Part shown: positions 14,073-39,325 of the stretch, one piece after another | How the letters are laid out: every line of letters starts with the position of its first letter | Position numbering within the stretch: the first letter of the stretch is position 1 | Assembly: GCF_963521255.1 (NCBI RefSeq) | Contig: NZ_CAUQTU010000010.1 | Location: 3,866 to 67,865 of the forward strand | Length of the DNA stretch: 64,000 bases | Source of the DNA: an uncultured Streptococcus sp. | GTDB taxonomy: Bacteria; Bacillota; Bacilli; Lactobacillales; Streptococcaceae | Direction: 5' to 3' | The notes under the pieces: model-generated | The model's input: only the letters and a program-made list of their open reading frames with translations | Told to the model about the DNA's origin: nothing | Databases searched by the model: none | Translations under genes and position numbers: made by a program

Positions 14073-14103
14073 AAAGGTACTAATACTCGGAGGTAAGGGA
14101 GAC

Positions 14104-14115
14104 ATGAACAACTAA
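14104..14115 (+). other. 3-codon mini-ORF (MNN*) behind a strong Shine-Dalgarno
   Basis: GGAGGTAAGGGAGAC-ATG AAC AAC TAA. Located inside the leader of the ABC-F gene, and function is unproven. Confidence 0.3.
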
Positions 14116-14203
14116 GTCTATCAAATAAAGAACCTTTATTTAGTAGATCTTGTTTTTGTCTCTTTTTGTGTGCTCTTTTTATACTAGATTTTCTAGTATC
14201 TTG

Positions 14204-18437: not shown

Positions 18438-18466
18438 GGTTTTTAATGTCATCCCGTGAGGTGACG
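18438..18466 (+). promoter_or_regulatory. PyrR binding loop in the pyrP leader
   Basis: GGUUUUUAAUGUCAUCCCGUGAGGUGACG parallels the pyrR-leader box (UUUAA..GUC..CCCGUGAGG). I could not define the downstream terminator confidently. Confidence 0.6.
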
Positions 18467-18581
18467 AAGACACAGAAATACTTGAAACTCTTTAAAGTCT
18501 AGATTTTAGAGAAGTCTTACTCTGAGGGCCTATTGCTGTAAAATAATGGGCTCTTTTTTGATGCCCAAAAGTGAGGTTTAT

Positions 18582-24846: not shown

Positions 24847-25503
24847 TTATAACTCTGGTAATTCTACCTTCAAGCTCATATCTGCAGGCTGCAACACTTT
24901 CTGAACCGCAGCAAGAAAGGCCAATCCATTATCCGATGGAGAATACTGGAATGTGATATGGATGACTTTTTGGTCAAAGTTATCGCCATATCGCTCCACA
25001 TACTGCTTGCTTTCGAGGAAGTAAATGTAGTTGTTGAGTTTTTCTTGCAGAATTTCAAGATGGACTGCTTCTATTTCTTCCTGCCAGCCGACTGGATCCA
25101 CCAGAAGAAGCTCTAAATGACTATCAACTATACCAATTGCATCAAGTTCGCTAGGTTCTAGTTCTGAAACAATGGCTTTATATAACAATTCTTCAAATTC
25201 TTTTTCGGAAAAATAGTGTCTCTTTCTATCTGTATCAATAAGAAGAAATTCTGGATTATCTCTTAAAAATTGTATGTTAGCATCTTCTTGACTAATTTTT
25301 AATTTCCAAAATCCGAAATTAGCATAATTAATTAATTCTTCACCATCATGTTCTCCCGACATGTAACTATCTGCAGCTTCTTTGGGAATTTCTCTAATCA
25401 CTTCTGGGCAGGTAATATTAAAAGTTGGATAACGCAAGAAATACTTATCACCATCTTGACAAATTTCCAACATATCTTTTTGACTAGTATAAATCGACTT
25501 CAT
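24847..25503 (-). CDS. hypothetical two-domain cytoplasmic protein, last gene of the island
   Basis: 218-aa ORF whose start overlaps the stop of the upstream membrane-protein gene by 20 nt. The acidic C-terminal half (VDPVGWQEEIEAVHLEILQEKLNNYIYFLES) is reminiscent of small immunity-type domains. No motif was recognised with certainty. Confidence 0.6.
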   Translation of the reverse strand: MKSIYTSQKDMLEICQDGDKYFLRYPTFNITCPEVIREIPKEAADSYMSGEHDGEELINYANFGFWKLKISQEDANIQFLRDNPEFLLIDTDRKRHYFSEKEFEELLYKAIVSELEPSELDAIGIVDSHLELLLVDPVGWQEEIEAVHLEILQEKLNNYIYFLESKQYVERYGDNFDQKVIHITFQYSPSDNGLAFLAAVQKVLQPADMSLKVELPEL

Positions 25504-26404
25504 TTTTAATAGCTATTAGCTCCTTGTATTTTTTTAAATATTTTTTTCCATACCACTCTTCTAAAGTTTTTCCCTCCCACTCGCGGTATTCTTCAGGATA
25601 TTTCCATTTATAGTAGGCTTGTAGCATATAGGGAAACATGAAATAAACTTCAAAAGCAGCAACTAAAATATTAAGAATCAGTATTGAAGCCAAAATACCG
25701 AGTCCTCCAATCAAATTATTCCTATTCTCCATCGAACTTGAGAAAAAAATACGAATGACTAGCCAAATTGCTACAACCAAACCACCATACTTGGCAATTA
25801 TGCTAAACATCTTGCCGAAGAATTTATCACTAAAACTTTTCTTTAGAGTTGTCCCATATAACAAAATTCTTAATGACTCACACTCAGAAAGAATCATTAA
25901 AATAATTATTAATAATATCAATCCTACAAAAGTGAACATTCCCCAAAATCCAGCTACTGCATAAATTAAGTTTAGAGAAAAAAGATTGAGTTCAACAACT
26001 AGCCAGATAATAAAGGTAACCATAAAATGGAATTGGCCCCTATAAATCAAAATAAACTGCTGGTTGTATCGCTTCCCTAGTATAATCAATAAAAGCCATA
26101 TTGCAAGTGCTATCCAAAATACCCAGTACGGAAGAAAATTAATGTCGGGTAAAGGGACTGTTAAATCTCTAGGATCAGAATGGTAAAATAAATAATCATT
26201 TAAAGCTATAATCAACCAATTGGGACCAATTATAAATAGGAAAGTCAGAATTACCAGCCAAACATATGATTTTTTTGTTCCTCTAAATTGCTCTTTTTTT
26301 AAAGCATCTTGGTAATTGTCCCGAGCAAATTTCCCTGAGACGCCATCATCTAATAAATTTAAACTCAACTCAAAACTTGCTTTAAATAGTGACTTTTTTG
26401 TCAT
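25484..26404 (-). CDS. six-TM membrane protein, paralog 1 of 3 (unknown family)
   Basis: ATG 26404 behind GAGGA (MTKKSLFKASFELSLNLLDDG). Six hydrophobic segments. Conserved tail YKWKYPEEYREWEGKTLEEWYGKKYLKKYKEL. Confidence 0.75.
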   Translation of the reverse strand: MTKKSLFKASFELSLNLLDDGVSGKFARDNYQDALKKEQFRGTKKSYVWLVILTFLFIIGPNWLIIALNDYLFYHSDPRDLTVPLPDINFLPYWVFWIALAIWLLLIILGKRYNQQFILIYRGQFHFMVTFIIWLVVELNLFSLNLIYAVAGFWGMFTFVGLILLIIILMILSECESLRILLYGTTLKKSFSDKFFGKMFSIIAKYGGLVVAIWLVIRIFFSSSMENRNNLIGGLGILASILILNILVAAFEVYFMFPYMLQAYYKWKYPEEYREWEGKTLEEWYGKKYLKKYKELIAIKNEVDLY

Positions 26405-26408
26405 AAGT

Positions 26409-27305
26409 TTAATCCTCAATCTTCTTTTCTACTAATTCTGAGTGCTTTTTCAAGTATCTCTTTCCATACCATTCTTCCACTGATTTTCCTTCCCATTCAC
26501 GGTATTCTTCGGAATATTTCCATTTGTAGAATCCTTGTAAATAACTAGGAAATTCGATGTAAATTAGCATAGCAATCACAGCAATATTTAGGATAATCCA
26601 TGTTATCAAAAGACCTAATCCTTCCAATAAAGTTGAAAATTTTATGGAAAAACTTTTTATAATAAAGTTTATAATGACTCCAATTCCCAAAAAACTCATT
26701 CCATAAATCGCTATCTTATTGACAATTTTGTTTCGAAGAGAAGAGCCACTTCCATTACCATACATCAGTTTTGTAAGACTTTCAATTTCAAGGCTAAACA
26801 TAAAATAGGCTAATATAGTAATAAAAACAAAAATCGCAGCAACCATCCAAATAGATAAAGTTGGTAATGACATATCAATCGCTAACAGATTAAATTCAAG
26901 ACTAAGCCAAATTAGAAATGTGATGACATGAAAATGATTACGATAAGGCAGTATAAAAGCTTTTCTAAAAACTTTACCAATCAATATGATAAATACCCAA
27001 ATTAAGAAACAGACTAGATATACCTCAGCTGTTAGTAATGGATGTTGATAGATAGGCAATCTTAAATCTTTAGGATCAGAGTTGTGCAAGGACAGCGAGA
27101 AAACAAGAATCATAAAGTTTATAATGACAGGACCGATAAGAGTGAAAACAATATTCTGAATATGAAGAACTAGTTTAGACTTTCCTTCCCTATAATATGT
27201 TTCTAACTTAGAGAAAACATTTCCTTTCTGATACTGTAAAAAACCATCATCTTCTAGATTAAGACTTTCTTCAAAACTTGCACTAAAAATTGATTTCTTC
27301 TTCAT
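26409..27305 (-). CDS. six-TM membrane protein, paralog 2 of 3
   Basis: ATG 27305 behind AGGTGA (MKKKSIFSASFEESLNLEDDG). Same architecture, with tail YKWKYSEEYREWEGKSVEEWYGKRYLKKHSEL. Confidence 0.75.
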   Translation of the reverse strand: MKKKSIFSASFEESLNLEDDGFLQYQKGNVFSKLETYYREGKSKLVLHIQNIVFTLIGPVIINFMILVFSLSLHNSDPKDLRLPIYQHPLLTAEVYLVCFLIWVFIILIGKVFRKAFILPYRNHFHVITFLIWLSLEFNLLAIDMSLPTLSIWMVAAIFVFITILAYFMFSLEIESLTKLMYGNGSGSSLRNKIVNKIAIYGMSFLGIGVIINFIIKSFSIKFSTLLEGLGLLITWIILNIAVIAMLIYIEFPSYLQGFYKWKYSEEYREWEGKSVEEWYGKRYLKKHSELVEKKIED

Positions 27306-27321
27306 ACTTTTCACCTAAATC

Positions 27322-28203
27322 CTATTTTAATAACTCCTTGTGTTTTTTTAAATATTTTTTTCCATACCATTCTTCTACTGTTTTCCCTTCCCACTCGCGG
27401 TATTCTTCAGGGTATTTCCACTTGTAATAGCCTTCTAAAAAGAAAGGAAACTCCATGAATACAATCATGGCGATTACACCAATATTTGATAGAATCCAAA
27501 ATATAAAGAGACCTAAAAGAGTTACGGAAGAGGAAAAATTAATAGAAAAAGCTTTGAAAATATAATTAACAATCACAGCCAAGCCCAATATACCTGCTCC
27601 ATAAATAGCAAGGCCTTTGGCAATTTTATCGAGTAAGGTAGGTGACTTAACTTCTCCATACATTCGTTTTTTCAAACTTCTAACCTCTGTTCTTAACATT
27701 ACATAAGTCAACAATACTTGAAGCCCAAAAAGTACTAAGATCCCCCATATTGATAATATAGGTAAAGACATAGTTGTTGCCAGCAGATTAAATTCAAACA
27801 CAAACCATATTATAAAAGTTATAATATGAAATCGATAACGATAAGGGAGAATAAACGTCCGTTTAAAGAATTTACCCATTAATACCAATAACAACCAAAT
27901 TAACAAGCAAATCAAATAAAGCTCGACTGTTAGCAAAGGATACTGAGAAACTGGTAACCTTAAATCTTTAGGATCAGAATTTTGCAATGATAGGGTAACA
28001 GCAAGGAGCATGAAATTTGCACCTATCGGAAACAACAGACTAAAAATAAAAGTTTTAATACCAAACCAAAAAGAGGGGCTCCCTTTCTTAAAGGCTTTCC
28101 CAAGTTTATTATAATAATCTTTTTTCTGATACTGTAAAAACCCATCATCTAATAAATTTAAACTCTCCTCAAAACTTGCTTTAAAAATTGATTTCTTTTT
28201 CAT
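27322..28203 (-). CDS. six-TM membrane protein, paralog 3 of 3
   Basis: ATG 28203 (MKKKSIFKASFEESLNLLDDG). Tail YKWKYPEEYREWEGKTVEEWYGKKYLKKHKEL. The ORF-track N-terminal extension overlaps the upstream gene and was dropped. Confidence 0.75.
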   Translation of the reverse strand: MKKKSIFKASFEESLNLLDDGFLQYQKKDYYNKLGKAFKKGSPSFWFGIKTFIFSLLFPIGANFMLLAVTLSLQNSDPKDLRLPVSQYPLLTVELYLICLLIWLLLVLMGKFFKRTFILPYRYRFHIITFIIWFVFEFNLLATTMSLPILSIWGILVLFGLQVLLTYVMLRTEVRSLKKRMYGEVKSPTLLDKIAKGLAIYGAGILGLAVIVNYIFKAFSINFSSSVTLLGLFIFWILSNIGVIAMIVFMEFPFFLEGYYKWKYPEEYREWEGKTVEEWYGKKYLKKHKELLK

Positions 28204-28219
28204 AAACAGATACCTAAAT

Positions 28220-28903
28220 TTAATTTTTACTTTGATTTGATAAAACATCAACTATCTCATATTCCCGTTCTTCTCCAGGTGCAAATGCAATGTTGACAGT
28301 CCCTAGAAATATGAACATTATTAACATCATTAAACAAAGCATGCTAATGTTCTTCAAATATATGAATGCCAGAGCAAATATAAGAGTTAAGGCAAAAATA
28401 CATAGTCGCAATAGAAACATTTTGACATAAAAACGTAATGAATTTACTGGTTTTATCTTAAAATTAATAGATTGCTCCAACGATCTATTGAGTAATTTTT
28501 CCAAAGTTTTTTTCTTTTTAGAATATAAAAGTTGAAGCAAACTAAAAGACAATAATAGACCAATAACTACTAAAACCAAGCTAGTTACTATCGAAAGATT
28601 CACATAAAAGTTGGCAAATAAATCAATATGATTCATACGAGCCCAGGCATTCACAAAAACTGCTAATCCTGCGGCTAATGACGTTGGAAGGATAAATTTG
28701 CTCGCCTTAGAGTTTTTTTCTTCGATTTTAACAAGTTCTTCATCTGAAATAGCATAAACTTTCTGATAAAAATACCAGTTTAGAGGCAAACAGAAGTATC
28801 CGAGAAAATGTTTAGGAGATCTATCTAATAGATACTGTCTCCCCTGATAATGAAATAATAGGTATCGAAGATTCCCTTTATAATATAATTTTATTTTTTG
28901 CAT
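28220..28903 (-). CDS. tandem five-TM membrane protein (DUF443/TsaI-like)
   Basis: 227 aa. N-terminus MQKIKLYYKGNLRYLLFHYQGRQYLLDRSPKH followed by 4-5 TM helices. Paralogous to the next gene. Confidence 0.7.
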   Translation of the reverse strand: MQKIKLYYKGNLRYLLFHYQGRQYLLDRSPKHFLGYFCLPLNWYFYQKVYAISDEELVKIEEKNSKASKFILPTSLAAGLAVFVNAWARMNHIDLFANFYVNLSIVTSLVLVVIGLLLSFSLLQLLYSKKKKTLEKLLNRSLEQSINFKIKPVNSLRFYVKMFLLRLCIFALTLIFALAFIYLKNISMLCLMMLIMFIFLGTVNIAFAPGEEREYEIVDVLSNQSKN

Positions 28904-28975
28904 TCTAATCCTTACTAATCTAAAAAAACATGAGTTCTTCCAAACTATGAGGAGTATCTCGATATAATCTACATC

Positions 28976-29641
28976 TTATTTTAGTATTTTATCATTTATT
29001 TTATATAAGTGATGACTTTCAGTTCCAAATGCAACATTAGAAGCCGATAAATATAGAAAGATGATGGCATTTGCCATTAAACCAAAAAGTAAGTTCCCTG
29101 AGTAAAAATAATACAAGGACATAAAAAATGCTAGTCCACCAAAAACCACTATAAATCCTAGCAACTGTTTAAAGTCAATTTTTACTGGCGTGATTTTATA
29201 GTATTGTAAATGCCTAAGTTCACGCCCTAGCAAGGAGGCCATCCTTCTTTTCCGAGAATAGTAAAATAATTCAACCAGAACATATGTTAAAAGAAAAGTC
29301 ATTAAAAAGAGTGCCACTGTCGTAAAACTTGAAAGATTCGTTTCAAAATACTTAGTAATATCAATCTTGTTCACGCGTAACCAATTATATAAAAAGACAC
29401 TCAGTCCAGCACCGAGTGAAGCTGAAACAGTGAGTTTTGTATCACGTCCATTTTTTTCTTTTATTTTACAGTACTCATCCGATGTAATAGGATACACATG
29501 TTGAAAGAAAAGCAAATTTATAGGTGGAAAAAGATATCCTATCAAATGACATGGCCTTCTATCAAGTAAATAGTATTGATGATTGAATTCAAATACTAAA
29601 TAACGAAAATTTCCATAAGTAAAACGAATTTTTTCCATCAT
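28976..29641 (-). CDS. tandem five-TM membrane protein (DUF443/TsaI-like)
   Basis: 221 aa. N-terminus MMEKIRFTYGNFRYLVFEFNHQYYLLDRRPCH, with the same layout as 28220..28903. Confidence 0.7.
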   Translation of the reverse strand: MMEKIRFTYGNFRYLVFEFNHQYYLLDRRPCHLIGYLFPPINLLFFQHVYPITSDEYCKIKEKNGRDTKLTVSASLGAGLSVFLYNWLRVNKIDITKYFETNLSSFTTVALFLMTFLLTYVLVELFYYSRKRRMASLLGRELRHLQYYKITPVKIDFKQLLGFIVVFGGLAFFMSLYYFYSGNLLFGLMANAIIFLYLSASNVAFGTESHHLYKINDKILK

Positions 29642-29712
29642 TTCTCATTAGTCACAAACAAATCACTTTTACTTATTCCCTCTGAACTATACCCTAACAA
29701 GGTAGCATCATA

Positions 29713-30252
29713 TTAATCTCCTAATCCATTTGCATCATTCAGTTGAATCATCCATTCCTTAATAGTTTTTAATTTTACGATTGATACATAGAAGGTTTGA
29801 AATATTCTGTTTGGCAGGCAAAATAGATTGTATTCATTGTCACTTGCATCTATGTAATAAATCTTGTTTAATTTTGTAGAAAAATTTATTTTTCCTTTAG
29901 TTCTAGAATCAACCGAATAAAAGTCATCCAGTTGTTCTCTAGTTAAGTATTCTTTCAATATTTCAATATCTTCTATATCATTTATTAAAGTCATCAGTGG
30001 AAATTCAAAATCTGTAACTCCTCTTTTAACAAATATAGCAAAATATAGTTGCGCTAACTCCTTGTTACTAATTTTACAATATTCTAAAATAACCCCTCTT
30101 TCATTTACTAAAATGAAAAATTCGTCTTCTCTTTTTTCTAGAATATAAATCATATCCACATTATCATATGCCTGCAACTTGTTATTTATTGAAACAATTT
30201 CGACATTGCTGATAAACCTTTTCAAACTTACAATATATTCATTATCAAACAT
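29713..30252 (-). CDS. hypothetical cytoplasmic protein
   Basis: 179-181 aa ORF. ATG 30252 lies 6 nt after GAGGAA. No recognisable motif. Confidence 0.6.
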   Translation of the reverse strand: MFDNEYIVSLKRFISNVEIVSINNKLQAYDNVDMIYILEKREDEFFILVNERGVILEYCKISNKELAQLYFAIFVKRGVTDFEFPLMTLINDIEDIEILKEYLTREQLDDFYSVDSRTKGKINFSTKLNKIYYIDASDNEYNLFCLPNRIFQTFYVSIVKLKTIKEWMIQLNDANGLGD

Positions 30253-30373
30253 TATCATTTCCTCGAAACAGATTCCATTTTTTTCTTCTATTAGATTGAA
30301 ACCACAGTATCACAACATTACTTTTCAATAGAATTTAAAAAGTTATCAATAAATTGTGGCCCAATAATAAGAA

Positions 30374-31369
30374 CTATTTTGATTGTTTATATAAGTGTTC
30401 TAGTAATTGCCGACATTTTTCGTCAATCAATTCTCTATTAGCCAGCTGATAAATCCATTTTTCTGGGATGCCTTCCAGTTGATAGTGGGCTCCAGCCAAG
30501 GTACCTGTAATGGCACCGATGGTATCTGTATCCCCTCCAAGATTAATGGCTTTTAGAACAGCTTCTTCAAAACTATCTGTTGTACCTAAACACCAGAGAC
30601 AAGCCTTCAAGGTATCAACAACATAGCCTGTGGAAGCAATATCTTCCATAGATTTTTGATAAAATTCTCTATCAAATATTTCTCTAAAATGTTCCTGATA
30701 CTCTTCCCAGTATTCTGATTTTTTCTTGAAATAATCTTCAAGATAAGGTTTTGATTGACAAAGTAATTTTTCTAAACGAATGTTAAGAAGAAAACCGATT
30801 AAAAGCTGGACATAAAGAATAGATGCCACGATAGACCTTGGATGAGCATGAGTCAGCTTAGTATATTTCTCAATTATTTTTGATCTATAACTGAAATCAA
30901 AATTTTCATATAAGAGCAAAGCTAAGGGAGATATCCTCATCAGAGCTCCATTGCCATTATCTCTCTCACTAGTTCCTCCACATTTCTCTGGAGAGACTCC
31001 TGCCAAATACCGTTCAATCGCCTGATTAGTCGCAACACCAATATCAAAGCAGTATCCAAAAGGTGTGAGGTAGCCCTGACGATAAGCTACAAATTTATCC
31101 ATCAACCCATTCAAATCAGAATCCTCACATAGGTGTTCAATAAGTGCTAAGGATAAAGAAGTATCATCTGACCAGGTACCAGCTGGTTGATTATAGGTTC
31201 CATAACCCACCATATCTGAAATATGATAGGTATCTCTATTTCTGAACTCTACAGGGACTCCCAGTGCATCACCTATAGCTAGACCAAAGATAACCGAATT
31301 TATCTTTTGTTTAAGATTATATCTTCTATACTGATTTGAATCATCTTCCCATTTATCTTTTAATCTCAT
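30374..31369 (-). CDS. ADP-ribosylglycohydrolase (ARH/DraG family)
   Basis: 331 aa. Family motifs GDALGVPVEF near the N-terminus, WSDDTS, and GGDTDTIGAITGTLAGA near the C-terminus (binuclear metal site). AGGAG Shine-Dalgarno. Confidence 0.85.
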   Translation of the reverse strand: MRLKDKWEDDSNQYRRYNLKQKINSVIFGLAIGDALGVPVEFRNRDTYHISDMVGYGTYNQPAGTWSDDTSLSLALIEHLCEDSDLNGLMDKFVAYRQGYLTPFGYCFDIGVATNQAIERYLAGVSPEKCGGTSERDNGNGALMRISPLALLLYENFDFSYRSKIIEKYTKLTHAHPRSIVASILYVQLLIGFLLNIRLEKLLCQSKPYLEDYFKKKSEYWEEYQEHFREIFDREFYQKSMEDIASTGYVVDTLKACLWCLGTTDSFEEAVLKAINLGGDTDTIGAITGTLAGAHYQLEGIPEKWIYQLANRELIDEKCRQLLEHLYKQSK

Positions 31370-31553
31370 AGTCTTCTCCTATTGTATTAAATCCATTTTT
31401 AGAATAATTTTATCATCAACTATCTGCTGATTATTTCTTCCCTGAAACATATTTATCTTCTCTTTTGTCCTAACCAAACTTTAGCTAGTTCTCAATGACC
31501 TAGAAAGCTAAACAGATCTTTTACAAAATTCACATATCCTGCCTCAAATTAAA

Positions 31554-32201
31554 TCATTTTCCTTCCTCGTCCCATAGCGGCGAAGGATAGGGGTGTGAAA
31601 AGCCAAGTTCATTTGCCAACTGTTCCGCATGAACTGTCTGACTAAGAATCTTAAAGAATTCATCCTTTGCTTCCTTCATCGTATTAAACTCCCATGTTTT
31701 CCCTACAATATATGAGCGTTCATCCCTACTGTTAATCTGAAACTTACCATTTTTAAAAAACAAATGTGTTGCCCACGGTTTCCTGCTATCTTCATCAAAC
31801 AAGACATAATACAAGCTTTCAAGACCTCGTTCTTTAATCTCCTTTTCCACTATATTTTTTAAAGTTTCGATATCGATATCTAGTTTACCCCATAGTGGAG
31901 AAGGATATTGTGGCACAAAGCCATTGGAAATATAGTACTTATTTCTTGAAACGGTATGGTCTAACAATTCCAAAAATTTTTCTTTTGCATCAGGAAAATC
32001 AGAATACTCAAAAACTCTTCCTTTTCCAGCCCTATCCCTTGTTAAATATACCTCATACTTATGAGTTTGAGGATTGAGTTCAATTCTCGTTTCCCACTCC
32101 CAGGGATTATGGTCATTGAAAATTGAAAATCTCAAACTATCATAGCCTCGTTTTTGAATCTCCGATAAAAGCTCCGATCGTTCTTGCTCTCTATTAAACA
32201 T
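31554..32201 (-). CDS. two-module protein (A-module + B-module of an unknown about 105-aa family ending in SPLW)
   Basis: Residues 1-106 resemble the product of 34464..34793. Residues 107-215 resemble the product of 34809..35135. Both halves end in YPSPLW(G/D). Confidence 0.75.
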   Translation of the reverse strand: MFNREQERSELLSEIQKRGYDSLRFSIFNDHNPWEWETRIELNPQTHKYEVYLTRDRAGKGRVFEYSDFPDAKEKFLELLDHTVSRNKYYISNGFVPQYPSPLWGKLDIDIETLKNIVEKEIKERGLESLYYVLFDEDSRKPWATHLFFKNGKFQINSRDERSYIVGKTWEFNTMKEAKDEFFKILSQTVHAEQLANELGFSHPYPSPLWDEEGK

Positions 32202-32230
32202 TGTTCCTTTTCTCCTCTAAGATTTTGAGA

Positions 32231-32581
32231 CTACAACCATCCCTTGGCTTTTAAAAACTTATCTGGAATACGAAGCTCGAGCTCATCCTTGATTCCTTTT
32301 AGGTATTCATCCCAATCTGTTATTTGGCTGTATACAGCTGGCTCTTTGGTCAGGGATAAGTTCACTTCTTTCGTTAATACAATGAAGAACTCGCAGAGGT
32401 CATTCTCATAATCAAATTCAATAGTAAAGTAATCGTAAGACTTAAAGTCTATTTTAAACGCATGATAGTTGGCTTCTTCAACAACATCATAAATACTAGA
32501 AGAATCCATCTTATGATCAAAATAAGTTCGAATCATTCGGCTCGTTTCTACAGCAAACTTATCGGTTTCATTTAATTTCAA
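32231..32581 (-). CDS. hypothetical small acidic protein
   Basis: 116-aa ORF with a TTG start 9 nt after GAGGAG. Confidence 0.55.
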   Translation of the reverse strand: MKLNETDKFAVETSRMIRTYFDHKMDSSSIYDVVEEANYHAFKIDFKSYDYFTIEFDYENDLCEFFIVLTKEVNLSLTKEPAVYSQITDWDEYLKGIKDELELRIPDKFLKAKGWL

Positions 32582-32626
32582 AATATTATTCTCCTCAAAG
32601 ACATCATTTCTTTAAAATCTATTTGG

Positions 32627-33028
32627 TCAATTCTTTAATAAAACTTCCGCTCTATCTGAATCTATAAAGTCTTTCAATAGTTGCAAGGTGTGTTCAACAG
32701 ACTTTTCATCACGGCCATACACTCTTCTTATACTCTTAACATCAATAACCTTGGATAAAAAAGTGATTGAAAATCTCTGTTCATCCATTTGAGTGAACCA
32801 AATGTTAAACAAGCCACCCTCTCCAACTTCCAATTGCCTATTTTTACCGGTTGATGATATCCCCATCGTCATATGATATCCCTTATACGCGAATGGAAAA
32901 TTAAAATTTTCATCTTCTCCTTCATGAATGGCAATCGTATCAAGGTCAATCGAAAAAATTTTCTCTAAAACTTGTTTGACATTCTGATAACCTAAACTAT
33001 CTCTTGTAGGTAAGTAACCTTCGCTCAT
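32627..33028 (-). CDS. hypothetical small protein
   Basis: 133-aa ORF with a GGAGG Shine-Dalgarno. Confidence 0.6.
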   Translation of the reverse strand: MSEGYLPTRDSLGYQNVKQVLEKIFSIDLDTIAIHEGEDENFNFPFAYKGYHMTMGISSTGKNRQLEVGEGGLFNIWFTQMDEQRFSITFLSKVIDVKSIRRVYGRDEKSVEHTLQLLKDFIDSDRAEVLLKN

Positions 33029-33119
33029 TTACGAGACCTCCAAATATTTTCGAAATTCTCAAACTTCTATTACTTTGATAGAGTCAAATCAACTATTTTC
33101 CCCGTCTTTATATCGACTT

Positions 33120-33392
33120 TTAATCTTCTGTCGAATAAAGCCAGTCTTCTCTCAAAGTCATCTGTTCAAAGGGATAACTATTATTGCTGTATCCACTATT
33201 ATTTATCGTCCAGACTACATTTCCACTCGCATCAATCCTTAAAATGTTATTCTTTTCACTCTCATTATCAAAAGGAATCTCCAATAAAACAATAAATTCG
33301 TCACCGTGTTCAATTATATTTCGGATTTCAAATGTAAAAGATTTGATAATTTCACCATTTTCTATTAGCTGATGTTTTTTATATTCTAGCAT
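33120..33392 (-). CDS. hypothetical small protein
   Basis: 90-aa ORF in the same orientation and with the same codon style as its neighbours. Confidence 0.5.
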   Translation of the reverse strand: MLEYKKHQLIENGEIIKSFTFEIRNIIEHGDEFIVLLEIPFDNESEKNNILRIDASGNVVWTINNSGYSNNSYPFEQMTLREDWLYSTED

Positions 33393-33485
33393 TGTATCAA
33401 CCTTTCATCTGAGAATACCTACGTTAATCATTCTTTTAATCGTTTCTTCGTATTCTTGTTAAATCAATATCCTTTCATCACACTG

Positions 33486-33959
33486 CTAATCCTGTAACAT
33501 AGCTAAAAACTCTGTAAAGTTATTAGCTACAAACTCTATAGCAGGATCCAGCTCGTACGATTCCTCATGATACCAGATACACATGCTTGGATTTTCGGAA
33601 TTCTCGACATAATTTAGACAGAGAAAATCTCCACCATACAATGCTACTATGGGAATCAACTCAAATCCCAAAATATCTTCATGGACAAACAATCTTTCAT
33701 CCAGTTGGGACATTACAACATCAATGTCATACATGCCAAGTGGATTGTCTTTTGAATTCTCTAACACACACAAGAATCGCTCGATTAAAAAGGACCTATT
33801 TGTTACTGAAAATAAATTTTTGGAAGGGCGAAAACCATTTTTTCTCATTATAAAATTCTTATAATCATCAGGCAGTTTAACTCTCCACGCTACTTCTCTT
33901 TCATTTAATAGCGCATCAGTTGGCAAGGGGGAGATAATCGATTGATCTTGTTGTGTCAT
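33486..33959 (-). CDS. SMI1/KNR4 (SUKH-1) family immunity-type protein
   Basis: 157 aa. KLPDDYKNFIMRKNGF near the N-terminus, IPIVALYGGDFLCLNY, and a C-terminal FTEFLAMLQ. This is the typical SUKH layout. Confidence 0.8.
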   Translation of the reverse strand: MTQQDQSIISPLPTDALLNEREVAWRVKLPDDYKNFIMRKNGFRPSKNLFSVTNRSFLIERFLCVLENSKDNPLGMYDIDVVMSQLDERLFVHEDILGFELIPIVALYGGDFLCLNYVENSENPSMCIWYHEESYELDPAIEFVANNFTEFLAMLQD

Positions 33960-33968
33960 ATTCTTCTC

Positions 33969-34412
33969 CTACTGTTCCTCGCTTTTCACTTCCTCAAACC
34001 ATTTTTCAAACTCTAGACGTGGAAGCAATTCTTCATCCTTCTCATAACGCCCTTCATAGCTATAGCGACTATTAAGGGTATTTTTCTGTGCATCATAAAT
34101 CAACCACATCTCAGTCGGATGTTCACGATTATATTCTTGGCAAACCTCCTGCAATTTCTGCATATCTTTAGTTCCATATTTCAATAAAGCAAATGCCATA
34201 TTATCAGAATCATCTACTTTTTTTGTCGCAACTTCATTAACTTTTTCCATTCCAATTACAATACCATTAATTTTATAAAATGGCTTAAAACTATACAAAC
34301 TGTCCGCTATCGCATAGATATATACTTTTTCTGCTTGATTTTGGACATATTCCATTGCTAACGAAATCATACCTACTTGAACTTCCATAAATTTATCTTC
34401 GAATTGTGTCAT
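33969..34412 (-). CDS. YezG/EsaG (DUF600)-like immunity-type protein
   Basis: 147 aa. AEKVYIYAIAD...FKPFYKING and EMWLIYDAQKNTLNSRYSYE recall the WEKVY.YA / two-half layout of DUF600 proteins. This assignment is from memory only. Confidence 0.5.
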   Translation of the reverse strand: MTQFEDKFMEVQVGMISLAMEYVQNQAEKVYIYAIADSLYSFKPFYKINGIVIGMEKVNEVATKKVDDSDNMAFALLKYGTKDMQKLQEVCQEYNREHPTEMWLIYDAQKNTLNSRYSYEGRYEKDEELLPRLEFEKWFEEVKSEEQ

Positions 34413-34463
34413 AATATCTCCTTGTATTTGTATCTTATTGATTCTAACTTATCTTAGCACTTG

Positions 34464-34793
34464 TTATTCTGTTTCATTATCCCATAATGGAGAGGAGTAT
34501 TCAGGAACTTCCCCATTTTCTACAAAAAGTTTATTTATTTCTAGAGTAAGATCTAGTTTTTCTAGAAATTTATTTTTAGCATCCTCAAAATTATAGAATT
34601 CCAATTTTTTATTAAAACTTGCTCGATCCATGGTAGCGTAGACATTGTACACTTGCTTAGAATCGTCATATTCGATTACCACTTCCCATTCACTAGGACC
34701 ATATTCGTTAAAGATAGAATACCTCAAGCTCTCGTAACCTAAATCATGAATGGCTGACAACAGTTCTAAACGTTCTTGGGCTTCATCTCTCAT
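34464..34793 (-). CDS. single A-module protein (SPLW family)
   Basis: 109 aa. MRDEAQERLELLSAIHDLGYESLRYSIFNE...EYSSPLWDNETE. AAGGAGG Shine-Dalgarno. Confidence 0.7.
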   Translation of the reverse strand: MRDEAQERLELLSAIHDLGYESLRYSIFNEYGPSEWEVVIEYDDSKQVYNVYATMDRASFNKKLEFYNFEDAKNKFLEKLDLTLEINKLFVENGEVPEYSSPLWDNETE

Positions 34794-34808
34794 CTTTGCT
34801 TGACCTCC

Positions 34809-35135
34809 TTATTTATCCCACAAACTACATGAATAGTAGGGTGAATCTCCATTCTGTACAAAATATCTGTTCATTTCGATAAAAGACTCCATTAAATTAA
34901 GAAAAAATAGTTTTGCCTCTTCAAAATTGTCAAACTCCCTTGTTTTCCCCATTATATAGGTCCGGTCGTCTCGACTATTTACCATAAACTTCCCATCTCG
35001 ATAGTATAGATGTATGGCCCAAAGTTGACTACTATGTTCATCAAATAGAGCATAATAAAGATTTTCAAAGCCTTTTTCTCTGATTTCTTTTTCTACATCT
35101 TGTTTTAACAAATCTAAATTCAAATTATTATTCAT
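34809..35135 (-). CDS. single B-module protein (SPLW family)
   Basis: 108 aa. LLKQDVEKEIREKGFENLYYALFDE...GKFMVNSRDDRTYIMGKTREF...YYSCSLWDK. Confidence 0.65.
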   Translation of the reverse strand: MNNNLNLDLLKQDVEKEIREKGFENLYYALFDEHSSQLWAIHLYYRDGKFMVNSRDDRTYIMGKTREFDNFEEAKLFFLNLMESFIEMNRYFVQNGDSPYYSCSLWDK

Positions 35136-35185
35136 ATTATTGTCCCAATTAACAGTTTATCTATAGAGTGTTACAAGTCCCATCA

Positions 35186-35728
35186 CTATTTCTCAATAAT
35201 GGAAAAACGTTCATTTTTTTGATATTTTTGATTCAATCTTTCCAGCTGGTTCATTGGTTTTATTTTAACAAGACCGTTTGGGAAAGTGATGCTGTCGTTC
35301 AATTCCTCTTGATAATCCTTAATTCCTTTAGCAATTGCTTGGGCAACTGTCGACGTATGGATTGTAAAACTAGCTATATTTTTTTCTTGCATAAAAAGGA
35401 TTGCATCAAAAAACAAAACCGAAATATACAAATCAACAGCAGAACGCTGCGATAACTCTATAAGATCGCCTTCTAATATATCTTGAATCTTATCAATATC
35501 ATTCTGCTTGTAGAAATACTCAGCTAATACTTGGCAAATATCAGTCGGAAAAAGATCTGGTACAGAGGTCGGAGGATCTATGCGATATCTTTTTTCACCT
35601 CTCAAAATCCCTGCAACATTGCCAGCTTGGATAGCTTCTAACAAGAGTTTTCTGTAATTTTTCATTTGATAATCTCTCTTATCTCCAATTTCGAAGAGAC
35701 TTAGTTCGTTCTCTGCAAAATTTACCAT
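35186..35728 (-). CDS. hypothetical protein
   Basis: 180-aa ORF with a weak Shine-Dalgarno and no motif recognised. Confidence 0.5.
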   Translation of the reverse strand: MVNFAENELSLFEIGDKRDYQMKNYRKLLLEAIQAGNVAGILRGEKRYRIDPPTSVPDLFPTDICQVLAEYFYKQNDIDKIQDILEGDLIELSQRSAVDLYISVLFFDAILFMQEKNIASFTIHTSTVAQAIAKGIKDYQEELNDSITFPNGLVKIKPMNQLERLNQKYQKNERFSIIEK

Positions 35729-35780
35729 TTTGTTTTTATTAAGATTAGTTTCCGCTTTTTAATCGCTACTCGCTAGAATT

Positions 35781-36143
35781 TCAGCACCTTCGGGTAAATA
35801 TTTCTTCCAGTTCGGCCTTTGTGAATAAGCCTTGCGCTTTAGGATTTCCTCTTAAAGCTTCTGGATATTGCCTCAGGAAATTTCTATCAGCTTCTTCTTG
35901 TGTCACGTTCGGTGGCCAATAATCGTATTTAACCTTGCAAGATATTTCAAGTAGAGTCCGTTCTCCACTCTCTAGTAAGGTAAATAATTCATTTGGTAAA
36001 TCATAGACTGCTAACCAAGAAGCCACGGTTCCTTCTTCAAAAACTAAATAATACTTGTCCTCATTTCTCCAGATGGATTTCCCGTATCCTTTAACTTCTT
36101 CAAACTTAATAACATCTTCCCATTCTAGTTTTGTTGATTTCAT
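35781..36143 (-). CDS. hypothetical protein, paralog pair member (KLxWEDVIxFxEVKGYGKSIWRNEDKYYLV family)
   Basis: 120 aa. The first 75 residues are close to those of 36156..36578, and the DNA is near-identical over about 55 nt. Confidence 0.7.
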   Translation of the reverse strand: MKSTKLEWEDVIKFEEVKGYGKSIWRNEDKYYLVFEEGTVASWLAVYDLPNELFTLLESGERTLLEISCKVKYDYWPPNVTQEEADRNFLRQYPEALRGNPKAQGLFTKAELEEIFTRRC

Positions 36144-36155
36144 TCTATACCTCTT

Positions 36156-36578
36156 TTACTTAAGTGGCGATACATAATCATCTGGAAGTTTGCCCATTGA
36201 TTCTATCCATTGTTGTTCAGCTTGGGGAATAAGTTTTTCAAGTTCTTTATTACTAAAAAGCAACTGATTTTTACGGTTGGAAATCAGCACAATTGGCTTT
36301 TTTCTAGCTCTATCTTTTCTAATTTCGTTCTTTTCTTCTTCCGTCGGTGGCCAACAATCGTTCTGAATCTTCCAAGATACTTCGACTAGTGATCTCTCTC
36401 CACTATCTAATAGGGAGAATAATTCCTGGGGTAAATCATAGACAACTAACCAAGAAGCTATGGTCCCTTCTTCTAAAACCAAATAATACTTGTCCTCATT
36501 TCTCCAGATGGATTTCCCGTATCCTTTAACTTCTTTGAACTGGATAACATCTTCCCATTGTAGTTTTGTTGGTTTCAT
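36156..36578 (-). CDS. hypothetical protein, paralog pair member
   Basis: Start moved to ATG 36578 (MKPTKLQWEDV) behind GGAG, by analogy with the paralog (MKSTKLEWEDV). Confidence 0.7.
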   Translation of the reverse strand: MKPTKLQWEDVIQFKEVKGYGKSIWRNEDKYYLVLEEGTIASWLVVYDLPQELFSLLDSGERSLVEVSWKIQNDCWPPTEEEKNEIRKDRARKKPIVLISNRKNQLLFSNKELEKLIPQAEQQWIESMGKLPDDYVSPLK

Positions 36579-36648
36579 TTGTTTTCTCCTAGTATAAATT
36601 CTTCTCTCAACCAAAATATCGTAAAAATCAGGTTTCTATTTCTCTTCA

Positions 36649-37206
36649 TCAATAGGCTACGCCTTCTTTTACCCATTTTCTAGTTTCTAAATCTAAATTA
36701 AAATAGAAATCACTTCGACCAGATTTATCAAAACAATCCTCTTTAAGAGCCTCGCATACAATTCTCAGTTTCTTCTTACTTATCTCAGAAATATATAACA
36801 TAGTAAATCCTGCAGGAGATTCAATTTGATCCATTTTTTCACCTTCTAAATTATAAATCTCTAATTCTGATGGTATATCAAAATTGCTTGATGAGCGACA
36901 TATACTGAAGATACGCTGATTGTTAGGGTTAAAGCAAAGATGATGTAAATGTTGAAAAATAACCTGATGCTTCCCATTATGATTCCAATCTAGGGTTCCT
37001 TCTAGTAGATTTTGTTTCCCTAACAATTTTCCTTCTAAACTAAAGTAGAAAATGATTTTGCTTACAAAGTTTTCTCCACTATAGACGATAACAATGTTCT
37101 CATCTTTATTATATTCCGCATGAATGATATCTGGTAGTTCTATCTTTATTACAGAACCATCCCACTCCCATATGACCATCCGGTCACTGTAATCGATTTT
37201 CATCAT
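36649..37206 (-). CDS. hypothetical protein
   Basis: 185-aa ORF with an AGGAG Shine-Dalgarno. Confidence 0.6.
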   Translation of the reverse strand: MMKIDYSDRMVIWEWDGSVIKIELPDIIHAEYNKDENIVIVYSGENFVSKIIFYFSLEGKLLGKQNLLEGTLDWNHNGKHQVIFQHLHHLCFNPNNQRIFSICRSSSNFDIPSELEIYNLEGEKMDQIESPAGFTMLYISEISKKKLRIVCEALKEDCFDKSGRSDFYFNLDLETRKWVKEGVAY

Positions 37207-37223
37207 CCTTCTCCTAGTCTAAC

Positions 37224-37457
37224 TCAAATAAATTCAATCTGTATTGTTTGCTCAGTCATCATGGAATCCACTTCCTCGACAAGTTTATCTATCTCGTTCT
37301 GTGTGATAGGAATGTGATTGTAAGGTGGCTCCCAATTCTGTATACTTGACCTATATACAAGAAAACTATTATCAGTCAGCAGTTCTCCCTCTGCTTTTAA
37401 AACATAGCCATTTTCATAGTCAAAAGTAATGTTACCGCTTGTCCCAGAAATTTTCAT
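37224..37457 (-). CDS. hypothetical small protein, first gene of the island
   Basis: 77-aa ORF with a GAAGGA Shine-Dalgarno. Confidence 0.55.
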   Translation of the reverse strand: MKISGTSGNITFDYENGYVLKAEGELLTDNSFLVYRSSIQNWEPPYNHIPITQNEIDKLVEEVDSMMTEQTIQIEFI

Positions 37458-37577
37458 TCTATTTCCTTCTTTACTAAAACATCATTATTCTTCTTAGGAA
37501 TCTAAATCCTAATACTCAATCCAACCCCATAATAAGGAGAGAAATTCCCCTCCAAATAAGCACTTATACTTTCTCCT

Positions 37578-37612
37578 ATTATACCACACCTCCATTTTCA
37601 TCTGAAATGGTT
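37578..37612 (-). promoter_or_regulatory. candidate promoter of the island operon
   Basis: Minus strand reads TTCAGA, about 17-18 nt, then TGgTATAAT (extended -10 at 37578-37586), about 120 nt upstream of the first island gene. Confidence 0.5.
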
Positions 37613-37628
37613 TCCATTTTAGGACAAG

Positions 37629-37652
37629 AAAAAAACACTGATCATTCAGTGC
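37629..37652 (-). terminator. intrinsic terminator after tRNA-Arg
   Basis: Minus strand reads CACTGA-atga-TCAGTG followed by TTTTTTT. Confidence 0.7.
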
Positions 37653-37669
37653 TTTTTCGATTGAACTAT

Positions 37670-37741
37670 TGCCCCCTGCCGGAATCGAACCAGCAACTAC
37701 TCCTTAGGAGGGAGTTGTTATATCCATTGAACTAAGGGAGC
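37670..37741 (-). tRNA. tRNA-Arg (anticodon CCU)
   Basis: Minus strand reads GCTCCCTTAGTTCAATGGATATAACAACTCCCTCCTAAGGAGTAGTTGCTGGTTCGATTCCGGCAGGGGGCA. It folds with a 7-bp acceptor stem, an anticodon stem ACTCC/GGAGT with loop CTCCTAA, and a T-arm GCTGG-TTCGATT-CCGGC. CCA is not encoded. Confidence 0.9.
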
Positions 37742-37744
37742 TAG

Positions 37745-37770
37745 ATAAAAACTCTGCTGAATGAGCAGAG
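37745..37770 (-). terminator. intrinsic terminator after rplS
   Basis: Minus strand reads CTCTGCT-cattc-AGCAGAG followed by TTTTTAT. Confidence 0.7.
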
Positions 37771-37783
37771 TTTTTTAGTCGAA

Positions 37784-38131
37784 TTAACGACGGATTTCTT
37801 TGATACGAGCTGCCTTACCTTGAAGAGCACGCAAGTAGTACAATTTCGCACGACGTACTTTACCGTAACGAACAACTTCAATCTTTTCAACACGTGGAGT
37901 GTGGATTGGGAAGATACGCTCAACACCTACACCGTTAGAGATTTTACGAACTGTGTAGTTTTCTGAGATGCCAGCACCTTTACGTGCGATAACAACACCT
38001 TCAAAAATCTGGATACGTTCACGGTTACCTTCGACAACTTTCGCGTGTACACGAACAGTGTCACCAGGACGGAATGATGGGATATCTGTACGAAGTTGAC
38101 CTTCAGTCAAGCTTTGGATTAATGGATTCAT
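37784..38131 (-). CDS. rplS: 50S ribosomal protein L19
   Basis: 115 aa. [29 protein letters not shown] is a canonical L19 start. Confidence 0.97.
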
Positions 38132-38249
38132 TTTATTCTCCTATCTTTGTCAATCTTGAGGAACCTTCCTCAGCGGATAAACTGTATTTTTGTGCGTCCA
38201 TTACACACAAGATACAGTTTACCAAATTTCTAGATAAAAGTAAAGAAAT

Positions 38250-38579
38250 TTATAGCAGAATTCCTAAAAAAATCGCAATCAAACCACCTAGGTAGGTCAA
38301 AGCTAAATAAGAATAAAATACCTTCTTATCACTTAACAGTCTTTGGAGTTCGTCATTCAAGGTAGAGAAGGTTGTTAAACCTCCACAAAAACCCGTCGCT
38401 AAAATAGCATAAACTTCCTTAGATTCCACATGATTATAGAAAAGTCCAATCAAAAAACACCCCAACAGATTTGCGATCAAAGTTCCTAGTGGCAAGTTTG
38501 AAACTTGGTTATAGCGGGAAAAGAAATACCGTACGAGCGCTCCTAAACCACAAGCAATTGCAAGATAGACGATTACCAT
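38250..38579 (-). CDS. crcB: fluoride channel Fluc/CrcB subunit
   Basis: 109 aa, 4 TM helices, FCGGLTTFST motif. Confidence 0.9.
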   Translation of the reverse strand: MVIVYLAIACGLGALVRYFFSRYNQVSNLPLGTLIANLLGCFLIGLFYNHVESKEVYAILATGFCGGLTTFSTLNDELQRLLSDKKVFYSYLALTYLGGLIAIFLGILL

Positions 38580-38947
38580 TTCTTCCTCCCTAGAAAATAA
38601 GCCAAGAGTAAGCCTCCACCGATACTCAAAAGCAAATACAGGGCTAAACTAAGATAACGCCCTGTATCCAGTAATTTTACAGCATCAAGCATTAGACTGG
38701 AAAAGGTTGTCAAACCTCCACAAAAACCTGTACCCAGTGCTAAAACCAAGCCCTTACTGGTTCCCTTATAGACTAGATATCCCTTGACAAGGTAAATCAA
38801 GCAGAAAATGCCTAGATAGTTAACAAGAAGGGTGCCCCAAGGAAAGTCAGGACTGGCTGGTAACCAAGTAGAAACCAGGTAGCGAACCAATCCACCCAAC
38901 ATAGCAGCTAGAAAAATTCCTAGCGGATAAAATTGTTCTTTTTTCAT
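38573..38947 (-). CDS. crcB: fluoride channel Fluc/CrcB subunit
   Basis: 124 aa, 4 TM helices, FCGGLTTFSS motif. Overlaps both neighbours. Confidence 0.9.
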   Translation of the reverse strand: MKKEQFYPLGIFLAAMLGGLVRYLVSTWLPASPDFPWGTLLVNYLGIFCLIYLVKGYLVYKGTSKGLVLALGTGFCGGLTTFSSLMLDAVKLLDTGRYLSLALYLLLSIGGGLLLAYFLGRKKW

Positions 38948-39210
38948 TTGATATTTTGATCCTGATAATCACGCGAACGTTTGAGTATGTCCGAAAATGT
39001 TGCGACAATAGTCTCCTGATAGCGCTTGTCCTCTACACGATTTCTGACCTTTTCAAAAATAACTGCTTCTCTCTTGGTATCTAAAATCGGTTTCCCTGAA
39101 GCCTTCTTATAAGCGACAACCCCTTCAACTAAATGCATTCTTTCTTCTAACAGTTTGACAATTTGGTCGTCGATTTGATCAATCTCTTGCCGAATACTCT
39201 TTAAATCCAT
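38944..39210 (-). CDS. chorismate mutase (AroQ class)
   Basis: 88 aa. IRQEIDQIDDQIVKLLEERM is a typical AroQ helix 1. Confidence 0.8.
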   Translation of the reverse strand: MDLKSIRQEIDQIDDQIVKLLEERMHLVEGVVAYKKASGKPILDTKREAVIFEKVRNRVEDKRYQETIVATFSDILKRSRDYQDQNIK

Positions 39211-39284
39211 ACAATCTCCTCCTTTATTTGAATTATTGTATCAAAAAGCCACCAAATAGGCTAGTAAAATCCCAAGTCACGGTA

Positions 39285-39315: not shown

Positions 39316-39325
39316 ACGTTTATGC

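Follow-up and report, generated by a model that had tools for sequence, protein, structure and literature searches.

A 64,000-nucleotide (nt) stretch of the genome of an uncultured Streptococcus sp. (contig NZ_CAUQTU010000010.1 of assembly GCF_963521255.1, positions 3,866 to 67,865; here referred to as the window) carries three consecutive genes encoding predicted membrane proteins that are closely similar at both ends and have diverged considerably in between. What are these proteins for, and why have their ends in particular been kept? An earlier reading of the DNA, here referred to as the original prediction, proposed receptors or immunity proteins facing variable membrane-acting toxins. 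Our analysis of the three genes, labeled A, B, and C, and of the unnamed family to which they belong, labeled F, supports immunity-type proteins through three kinds of genomic evidence, namely the gene island in which the array resides, the linkage of F genes to a toxin gene, and the matching of F subtypes to toxin variants. The three genes probably encode orphan polytopic membrane immunity proteins directed against the glycine-zipper LXG toxins of type VIIb secretion systems (T7SSb) that are related to TelE and EsxX, a reading that is derived from comparisons of sequence and gene order.

The array lies on the minus strand and consists, in the direction of transcription, of gene C (27322-28203; 293 amino acids), gene B (26409-27305; 298 amino acids), and gene A (25484-26404; 306 amino acids), the last being the most divergent of the three. 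Each gene starts with ATG preceded by a Shine-Dalgarno-like sequence (AGGTGA, GAGGA, or AGGT). The co-oriented genes are separated by gaps of 16 and 4 nt and the next gene downstream (24847-25503) overlaps gene A by 20 nt, so the array genes are probably co-transcribed. Hydropathy scans of the open reading frames (ORFs) revealed six hydrophobic segments per protein, which confirmed the presence of three tandem six-transmembrane (six-TM) paralogs of 293 to 306 amino acids at 25484-28203. The N terminus, the loops between segments 2 and 3 and between segments 4 and 5, and the tail are rich in lysine and arginine; the sequences fit a topology with both termini in the cytoplasm, which would place the loop after TM1 outside and the tail inside the cell. 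The AlphaFold2 model of protein C, built with an alignment of 45 sequences, comprises six long helices and short N- and C-terminal helices, with a mean predicted local distance difference test score (pLDDT) of 87.7 and a predicted template modeling score (pTM) of 0.82.

Three conserved blocks, all encoded on the minus strand, recur in the array as originally described. The N-terminal block, KKS(I/L)F(K/S)ASFE(E/L)SLNL(L/E)DDG, is predicted to be cytoplasmic and is encoded in gene C at 28141-28197 (KKSIFKASFEESLNLLDDG), with equivalents identified by alignment at 27243-27299 in gene B and at 26342-26398 in gene A; the predicted common N terminus beginning MKKKSIF thus held as a block, gene A departing from it slightly (MTKKSLF..FELS). 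The motif SDP(K/R)DL(R/T)(L/V)P was found after TM1 in all three proteins (residues 76 to 84), in the TM1-TM2 loop, which is predicted to lie outside the cell; it is encoded at 27952-27978 in gene C (SDPKDLRLP), 27054-27080 in gene B, and 26153-26179 in gene A (SDPRDLTVP), and within the family it is kept only in streptococcal members. The aromatic and charged tail of about 30 amino acids, (Y/F)YKWKY(P/S)EEYREWEGK(T/S)(L/V)EEWYGK(K/R)YLKK(Y/H), is likewise present in all three proteins and is encoded at 27340-27429 in gene C (YYKWKYPEEYREWEGKTVEEWYGKKYLKKH), 26442-26531 in gene B (FYKWKYSEEYREWEGKSVEEWYGKRYLKKH), and 25526-25615 in gene A (YYKWKYPEEYREWEGKTLEEWYGKKYLKKY). It is predicted to be cytoplasmic and accounts for the majority of the near-invariant residues of the family. 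The three proteins can be aligned end to end with amino acid identities of 41% (A-B), 42% (A-C), and 57% (B-C), and this identity is distributed unevenly, reaching 75 to 90% in the first 20 and the last approximately 40 aligned columns and falling to 16 to 50% in most alignment windows of the core. The divergence of the membrane cores was therefore borne out, and the uniform identity expected of a very recent duplication of whole genes was not observed.

The original prediction had not recognized the family, and neither did our searches. Proteins A, B, and C gave no significant match in Pfam (E value of ≤0.1), NCBIfam, or PADLOC and had no named relatives, and 45 diverse F members compared with Pfam at an E value of ≤5 yielded scattered noise without a recurrent family. 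A Foldseek search of the PDB with the model of C returned no fold relative (best E value of 2.7, TM score of <0.3), and the best hit of a profile search of PDB sequences was an unrelated 116-amino-acid chain (E value of 1.4e-3). All three proteins matched, weakly and colinearly, phrog_31733 of the PHROGs database, a profile without assigned function (E values of 7e-4 to 8e-3; profile positions of approximately 100 to 288 of 292), while a tblastn search of 50,697 phage genomes revealed no F homolog. An exhaustive profile search of 1.84 billion representatives clustered at 50% identity recovered 186 proteins, many of them fragments, and a word-indexed search recovered about 2,000 F clusters at 90% identity; those clusters that carry a name are called only "hypothetical protein" or "membrane protein." Most members are streptococcal, with distant ones in Clostridium, in Ligilactobacillus, and on one Enterococcus plasmid. 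Across this range, A9, F11, E12, and S14 of the N-terminal block and Y260, K263, Y264, E266, Y268, R269, W279, Y280, and G281 of the tail (gene C numbering) are nearly invariant, and conservation of the protein peaks at the two predicted cytoplasmic ends, each of which is modeled at a pLDDT of approximately 90 or higher. No residue of the TM core is conserved across the family, which argues against a transporter or an enzyme with a membrane-embedded active site; with neither a family match nor conserved polar residues in the TM core, nothing identified F as a known transporter or enzyme family with catalytic TM residues. The F family, its toxin partner, and the mosaicism of its end blocks described below are not described in the literature searched, whereas the kind of system is known.

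Toxin partner and proposed paralog specificity

A survey of the neighborhoods of homologs for a cognate toxin, as envisaged in the original prediction, found a glycine-zipper LXG toxin gene directly upstream of F. We fetched 80 F-encoding genome loci by means of a 15-sequence alignment, all of them from Streptococcus, in which the F arrays comprise one to seven copies. The collected F genes of full length number 181. Within T7SSb loci, the genes follow the order EssB (YukC match, 1.4e-107), EssC (FtsK_SpoIIIE match), two Lap-like proteins of about 105 to 127 amino acids, one of which is DUF3958-like, the LXG toxin, one to three F genes, and DUF4176. The toxin is 480 to 560 amino acids long, with LXG Pfam matches of 1.2e-10 and 6.8e-7, and its variants share the C terminus ..GKGALSAxxSVGPLEGATxGxxxGG..GAxxGxxxGxxIQGIKxxxPKFFDDPVxGTKxxxxxxGxGIxGxxxxxSxxxGGIGKALGFG. 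Judged by its sequence, this C-terminal domain is a glycine zipper of the TelE, EsxX, and LXG-T2 kind. The glycine zipper is required for membrane damage by TelE, EsxX, and LXG-T2 of S. suis (PMC10434224, PMC12744356, PMC12955049).

In the genome loci, an F gene directly follows 24 of the 27 ORFs that carry the toxin C-terminal domain, mostly at an offset of -3, that is, with a 4-nt overlap. Since these loci had been selected through F, we made a separate metagenome scan seeded with the toxin. It yielded 48 loci, of which 46 extend far enough past the toxin to hold a further gene; each of these 46 has an F gene, with a start between 31 nt upstream and 200 nt downstream of the toxin stop codon and, again, mostly at -3. 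No DUF5085-like gene occurs within 3.5 kb downstream at 36 of the 37 full-length toxin modules. A toxin C-terminal domain of any variant lies within 10 kb at only 25 of the 80 F loci, so that orphan arrays are common, and several of them occupy the same chromosomal site as the array in the window, between rplS and a cof-type hydrolase gene. Outside streptococci, the conjugative plasmid AP025691.1 of Enterococcus sp. PLM3 (record positions 34304-43094) carries a T7SS-like module with the gene order FtsK-domain protein, small genes, a 513-amino-acid protein with a zipper of the form SVGPLEGITIG..GGIVGG, an F homolog (31% identical), and a 114-amino-acid gene product. The presence of both genes on a conjugative plasmid means that toxin and immunity could move jointly between cells.

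The toxin variants differ mainly in their last 50 residues and in the turn of the zipper, and the type of the adjacent F gene tracks the variant. Toxins of the form ..KAWKPK..TVKNISN.. (..KAWKPKFFDDPVKGTKE(I/M)IDDVGNGIKGTVKNISN..) are accompanied by F proteins 88 to 96% identical to C, and those of the form ..KWFEPK..GVANAVSN.. (..KWFEPKFFDDPV(K/Q)GTKNIVNKVGNGIKGVANAVSN..; L052, L093, and L106) by F proteins 93 to 97% identical to B. The 481-amino-acid toxins of the form ..KWLEPK..GFAGAVSK.. (..KWLEPKFFDDPVQGTKNIINNVGKGIEGFAGAVSK..; L016 and L101 to L104) are always followed by two F genes, the first about 85% identical to C (for instance, within L016 8547-11798) and the second 92 to 94% identical to A. 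In view of this two-gene arrangement, some F proteins may act as heterodimers, like ExiC and ExiD of Staphylococcus aureus. The distances between toxin domains and between the adjacent F proteins are correlated (Mantel rho of 0.59, reached in 0 of 300 permutations), most strongly between the last 50 toxin residues and the F core; this co-divergence is supportive only, because linked genes share ancestry. A tblastn search of the whole window with the toxin C-terminal domain returned chance-level fragments only, and the island holds no toxin gene. As far as sequence comparison can tell, the array therefore resembles a set of three specificities kept without a toxin.

Constraint and recombination in the end blocks

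The original prediction based its argument on tails that were held to be almost identical even at the DNA level. The two DNA strings that it quoted do recur, three times each (at 25548, 26464, and 27362 and at 25575, 26491, and 27389), where none is expected from 100 shuffles. The wider statement failed, as the tails are 72 to 88% identical in nucleotides and their synonymous sites are saturated. Between the three copies, the proportion of synonymous differences (pS) is 0.62 to 0.94 in the tail and 0.65 to 0.72 in the core, so that the tail is as saturated as the core, whereas the proportion of nonsynonymous differences (pN) in the tail (0.07 to 0.15) is only one-fourth to one-sixth of that in the core (0.29 to 0.48). 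The DNA similarity of the tails therefore results from protein-level constraint acting on codons of low degeneracy (W, K, E, and Y) and not from recent homogenization. Recent gene conversion among A, B, and C was rejected, given a tail pS about equal to or above that of the core and longest identical runs of 14 to 27 nt. The prediction of constraint or gene conversion on the tail accordingly stands in its first part, with a ratio of nonsynonymous to synonymous substitution rates (dN/dS) of 0.05 to 0.12, and falls in its second as far as recent conversion among the three copies is concerned; the tails of the window copies are held by strong purifying selection.

Comparison across strains added a second process. 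We assigned F orthologs to the core type of A, B, or C at an identity of 80% or more and estimated substitution rates within each type. The synonymous rate (dS) is 0.47 to 0.70 in the tail block (dN/dS of 0.05 to 0.12), 0.18 to 0.28 in the N-terminal block (dN/dS of 0.10 to 0.18), and 0.07 to 0.18 in the TM core (dN/dS of 0.26 to 0.41), so that within one core type the tail dS is 4 to 10 times the core dS (F orthologs of loci L001 to L128). Moreover, tail DNA haplotypes at least 96% identical are common to different core types (8 A/C pairs, 11 B/C pairs, and 1 A/B pair), which indicates that recombination in the end blocks also brings cores into new combinations. The conserved ends are thus both strongly constrained and act as recombination junctions across the population. 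The TM core is under relaxed purifying selection; positive selection on it was not supported, as no overall dN/dS signal was found (0.24 to 0.41 overall). Of the diversifying change foreseen for the membrane part, the splitting of cores into discrete types was seen, and a dN/dS signature of positive selection was not.

Recombination through conserved end blocks has been described for the tipC and esaG immunity arrays (Garrett et al. 2022, PMC9484751), which resemble the F arrays in consisting of tandem nonidentical immunity paralogs with 5' and 3' blocks of high similarity. The proteins are unrelated, TipC being a membrane-anchored soluble protein and EsaG a cytoplasmic one. In addition, the end blocks of F, in contrast to those arrays, are also the most constrained segments of the protein and are kept as far as Clostridium, Ligilactobacillus, and Enterococcus.

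These observations suggest how an orphan F array could work. Each paralog would neutralize the matching toxin variant arriving from a neighboring streptococcus armed with a T7SS. Within the membrane or at its surface, the variable TM core and outer loops would bind the glycine-zipper hairpin of the toxin or its variable last 50 residues, and this binding would confer specificity and prevent the toxin from oligomerizing into a channel. The invariant N-terminal helix and the aromatic and charged tail would form a common cytoplasmic module serving in folding, in anchoring at the membrane interface, or in a shared interaction. Three specificities held without a toxin would provide resistance to several competitor genotypes, and the conserved 5' and 3' blocks would allow cores to be swapped between genes by homologous recombination.

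Known systems and competing explanations

The closest functional parallel comes from S. aureus, where the DUF5085 pair ExiAB neutralizes EsxX in the cytoplasm and the six-TM pair ExiC/ExiD (DUF5079/DUF5080) protects against the toxin from outside; ExiC/ExiD also occur as orphans in antitoxin islands of toxin-less strains (PMC12744356). ExiC/ExiD, as found in S. aureus ST398, and F share six predicted TM segments, a position beside a membrane-depolarizing glycine-zipper LXG toxin, and orphan occurrence. Protection against external toxin has been shown experimentally for ExiCD, whereas for F we infer it. ExiC and ExiD function only as a pair in a locus that also contains ExiAB, while F modules lack DUF5085 and usually hold a single F gene, and F carries a strongly conserved cytoplasmic N- and C-terminal module. 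No sequence relationship was detected by comparison with the Pfam models of DUF5079 and DUF5080, the only form in which ExiC and ExiD were compared: A, B, and C gave no match at an E value of ≤0.1, and the two families were absent from the 25 most frequently matched of the 63 Pfam families hit by the 45 F members at an E value of ≤5.

A second parallel is telE of S. gallolyticus, which is followed by the gene for the six-TM protein Gallo_0563 and by genes for two DUF5085 proteins, including TipE. Gallo_0563 did not protect Escherichia coli against cytoplasmic TelE, its immunity role has only been speculated on, and a role in export or stabilization within a seven-protein TelE complex has been proposed (PMC10434224; bioRxiv 10.64898/2026.03.12.711312). 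Gallo_0563 of strain UCN34 is similar to F in that it directly follows a glycine-zipper LXG toxin, has six TM segments, and lacks a Pfam domain, and its relatives are also found in streptococcal immunity islands. A second six-TM family (221 to 248 amino acids) that we encountered in 13 fetched loci, with DUF5085 genes alongside in 7 of them, is probably the Gallo_0563 family; its representatives were picked by position, size, and motifs and not from the UCN34 sequence. It differs from F in its size, in its ERYHGPLI..HPE motifs, and in the two adjacent DUF5085 genes, none of which are features of F. Homology between the two families was rejected, as hhalign gave a probability of 13% over 20 columns (45-sequence F alignment against a 15-sequence alignment). 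In locus L078 (5271-7944), the order is TelE-like glycine-zipper toxin, Gallo_0563-like gene, and two DUF5085-like genes; in part of locus L032 (11330-16198), the family likewise follows TelE-like toxins. Tandem copies occur in S. macacae, and S. sanguinis and S. mitis carry further members in their immunity islands.

DUF443 proteins neutralize TspA, TelD, and LXG1-CT3 (PMC9600955, PMC12482557). These proteins (TsaI, TipD, and Imm3; DUF443, TIGR01218) resemble F as polytopic membrane immunity proteins to membrane-depolarizing T7SS LXG toxins that occur as tandem nonidentical paralogs. They have five helices instead of the six in F, their partners are toxins of the TspA/TelD class, and neither PF04276 nor TIGR01218 was matched by A, B, or C. 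TelD and TipD were considered as a matching pair and rejected, TipD being a DUF443 protein. Finally, Imm2 of S. suis WUSS351, a predicted TM protein encoded directly after the glycine-zipper toxin LXG-T2, rescues E. coli (PMC12955049). It is likened to F by position, predicted TM segments, and toxin type, a comparison made by description only; the F family includes one S. suis cluster, HO520_10655, with a locus-tag prefix other than that of Imm2, and no E8M06-tagged protein appeared among the F homologs. On sequence grounds, F is thus a third, unrelated six-TM family at glycine-zipper LXG loci, beside ExiCD and the Gallo_0563-like proteins, and one that does without DUF5085.

Several points weigh against an immunity role of F. 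The literature searched holds no published protection test of any F member, and we infer the role; positional analogs give a mixed picture, since a TM gene after bltA of group B Streptococcus failed to protect in one assay (PMC11481500). No homology of F to validated immunity families was detected by Pfam, hhalign, Foldseek, or PDB profiles, and co-divergence of linked genes can come from shared ancestry alone. The absence of a toxin gene covers the window only; a T7SS or the toxin may be encoded elsewhere in the source genome. Lastly, a simple model in which the toxin is blocked within the membrane leaves the conserved cytoplasmic ends unexplained.

These invariant ends may be structural. Alternatively, F may be a single-protein factor that acts in two compartments, in which the variable six-helix core would neutralize incoming toxin and an invariant cytoplasmic cap made of the N-terminal ASFEESLNL helix and of the YYKxKYxEEYRxWEGKxxEEWYGKKY tail would, before export, capture the producer's own toxin or hand it to the T7SS, in place of the separate DUF5085 antitoxins of the TelE and EsxX systems, the end blocks doubling as recombination handles for shuffling specificity cores among genes and strains; we consider this unlikely. 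A related explanation, which we consider rather unlikely, is that immunity itself is dual: the TM core would block external toxin and the cytoplasmic ends would sequester the producer's own toxin, replacing the DUF5085 pair (ExiAB, TipE). The missing DUF5085-like genes at 36 of 37 full-length toxin modules are in line with such a replacement, as are the preference of DUF5085 genes for the Gallo_0563-like family instead (7 of 11 DUF5085-bearing loci), the conservation of the well-modeled cytoplasmic ends across genera, and the toxicity of EsxX and TelE from both membrane sides (PMC12744356; bioRxiv 10.64898/2026.03.12.711312). Cytoplasmic toxicity is, however, not general, as TspA is not toxic from the cytoplasm and needs only TsaI (PMC12744356); moreover, orphan copies, which encounter no toxin in the cytoplasm, conserve the module to the same degree, and an interaction of the toxin with the F ends would have to be assumed.

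It is improbable, in our view, that F is an accessory for export or stabilization that confers no protection but associates, inside the producer cell, with the hydrophobic C-terminal domain of the toxin, keeping it soluble or targeting it to the T7SS. The translational coupling of F to the toxin gene would suit this role, as would the predicted cytoplasmic location of the invariant residues, and Gallo_0563, encoded at the same position, copurifies with TelE without protecting E. coli (PMC10434224; bioRxiv 10.64898/2026.03.12.711312). Yet most arrays have no nearby toxin (the domain was found at 25 of 80 loci and not in the window), the arrays hold divergent types matched to different toxin variants and reside among immunity genes, and orphan F genes are still under purifying selection; one would not expect several versions of an accessory without cargo to be retained. 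That F is an unrelated transporter, enzyme, or bacteriocin immunity protein present in the island by chance is very improbable, for although six-TM architecture is generic and the weak colinear PHROG matches (E value of about 1e-3) carry no function, such a protein is contradicted by the empty Pfam, NCBIfam, and PADLOC searches with the three proteins and the 45 members, by the lack of a fold or sequence match to solved structures, of a family-wide conserved TM-core residue, and of homologs in phage genomes, and by toxin adjacency in 46 of 46 toxin-seeded loci.

The surrounding island and the rest of the window

The immunity reading of the array is also in keeping with its surroundings. The array lies within an island (24847-37206) in which every gene is on the minus strand and the G+C content is 0.30 to 0.34, compared with about 0.40 in the flanks; tRNA-Arg(CCT) (37670-37741, minus strand), at its upstream edge, and rplS form one boundary of the island, and the cof-type hydrolase gene forms the opposite one. 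The gene overlapping gene A (24847-25503) belongs to DUF6572, and directly upstream of gene C lies a pair of DUF443/TIGR01218 "tandem five-TM" genes (28220-28903 and 28976-29641; PF04276 E values of 2.7e-16 and 3.3e-14, TIGR01218 E values of 7.7e-36 and 9.2e-48). Further upstream are genes for an ADP-ribosylglycohydrolase (30374-31369), for three Imm59 proteins with four domains among them, one gene encoding two (31554-32201, 34464-34793, and 34809-35135), and for a SUKH/SMI1 protein (33486-33959), along with approximately nine small ORFs without a family match. DUF443, Imm59, and SUKH are recognized immunity families of polymorphic toxin systems, and the context suggests immunity roles for the DUF6572 protein and the ADP-ribosylglycohydrolase as well. 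By analogy, the island is of the kind known as an "antitoxin island" in staphylococci (PMC12744356). At the rplS-to-cof site of related strains (L001, L009, L010, L022, L043, L054, and L055), the gene set differs widely, some loci holding only two or three F genes and others upwards of 15 genes.

Two adjacent small ORFs of the island (35781-36143 and 36156-36614, minus strand) are paralogous, both containing ..KLEWEDVI.F.EVKGYGKSIWRNEDKYYLV.., and may represent another unassigned immunity family. The C terminus of the second (..GKLPDDYVSPLK) recurs in a 140-amino-acid ORF of S. oralis (L016, 15873-16295) that is located downstream of the gene for a 627-amino-acid protein, after ORFs of 142 and 64 amino acids. 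The tRNA-Arg gene is followed by the best promoter-like site of the region (37606-37578; TTCAGA-17-TATAAT with an extended -10 TG) and by a terminator-like hairpin (37553-37536); across the island, the number of promoter and terminator sites did not exceed the shuffled expectation. Elsewhere in the window, matches above the Rfam gathering score (12440-12572, 14079-14177, and 18446-18540) comprise a PyrR binding site that precedes the pyr/car genes and two small RNAs of streptococci, SpF43 and SpF44; these matches fit a chromosome of the mitis group. A possible small cassette, mobile or variable, spans 47926-50126. Judged from sequence, it comprises a serine recombinase/resolvase-like gene (47926-48513), a gene whose product is secreted (48715-49308), an ORF encoding repeats of the choline-binding type (49278-49628; GWVKDGSWYYLDGSGAMKTGW), and a gene for a small membrane protein (49662-50126).

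T7SS toxins are a means of competition among oral and nasopharyngeal streptococci, whose immunity repertoires set which strain resists which toxin. For a family that databases call "hypothetical" or "membrane protein," our analysis provides a probable function together with a cognate subfamily of toxins. Two questions thereby become accessible to direct tests, namely the mechanism by which glycine-zipper channels are blocked by membrane immunity proteins and the general need for a cytoplasmic antitoxin, and the array, together with the defined matching toxin variants of sequenced strains, constitutes a ready-made specificity panel.

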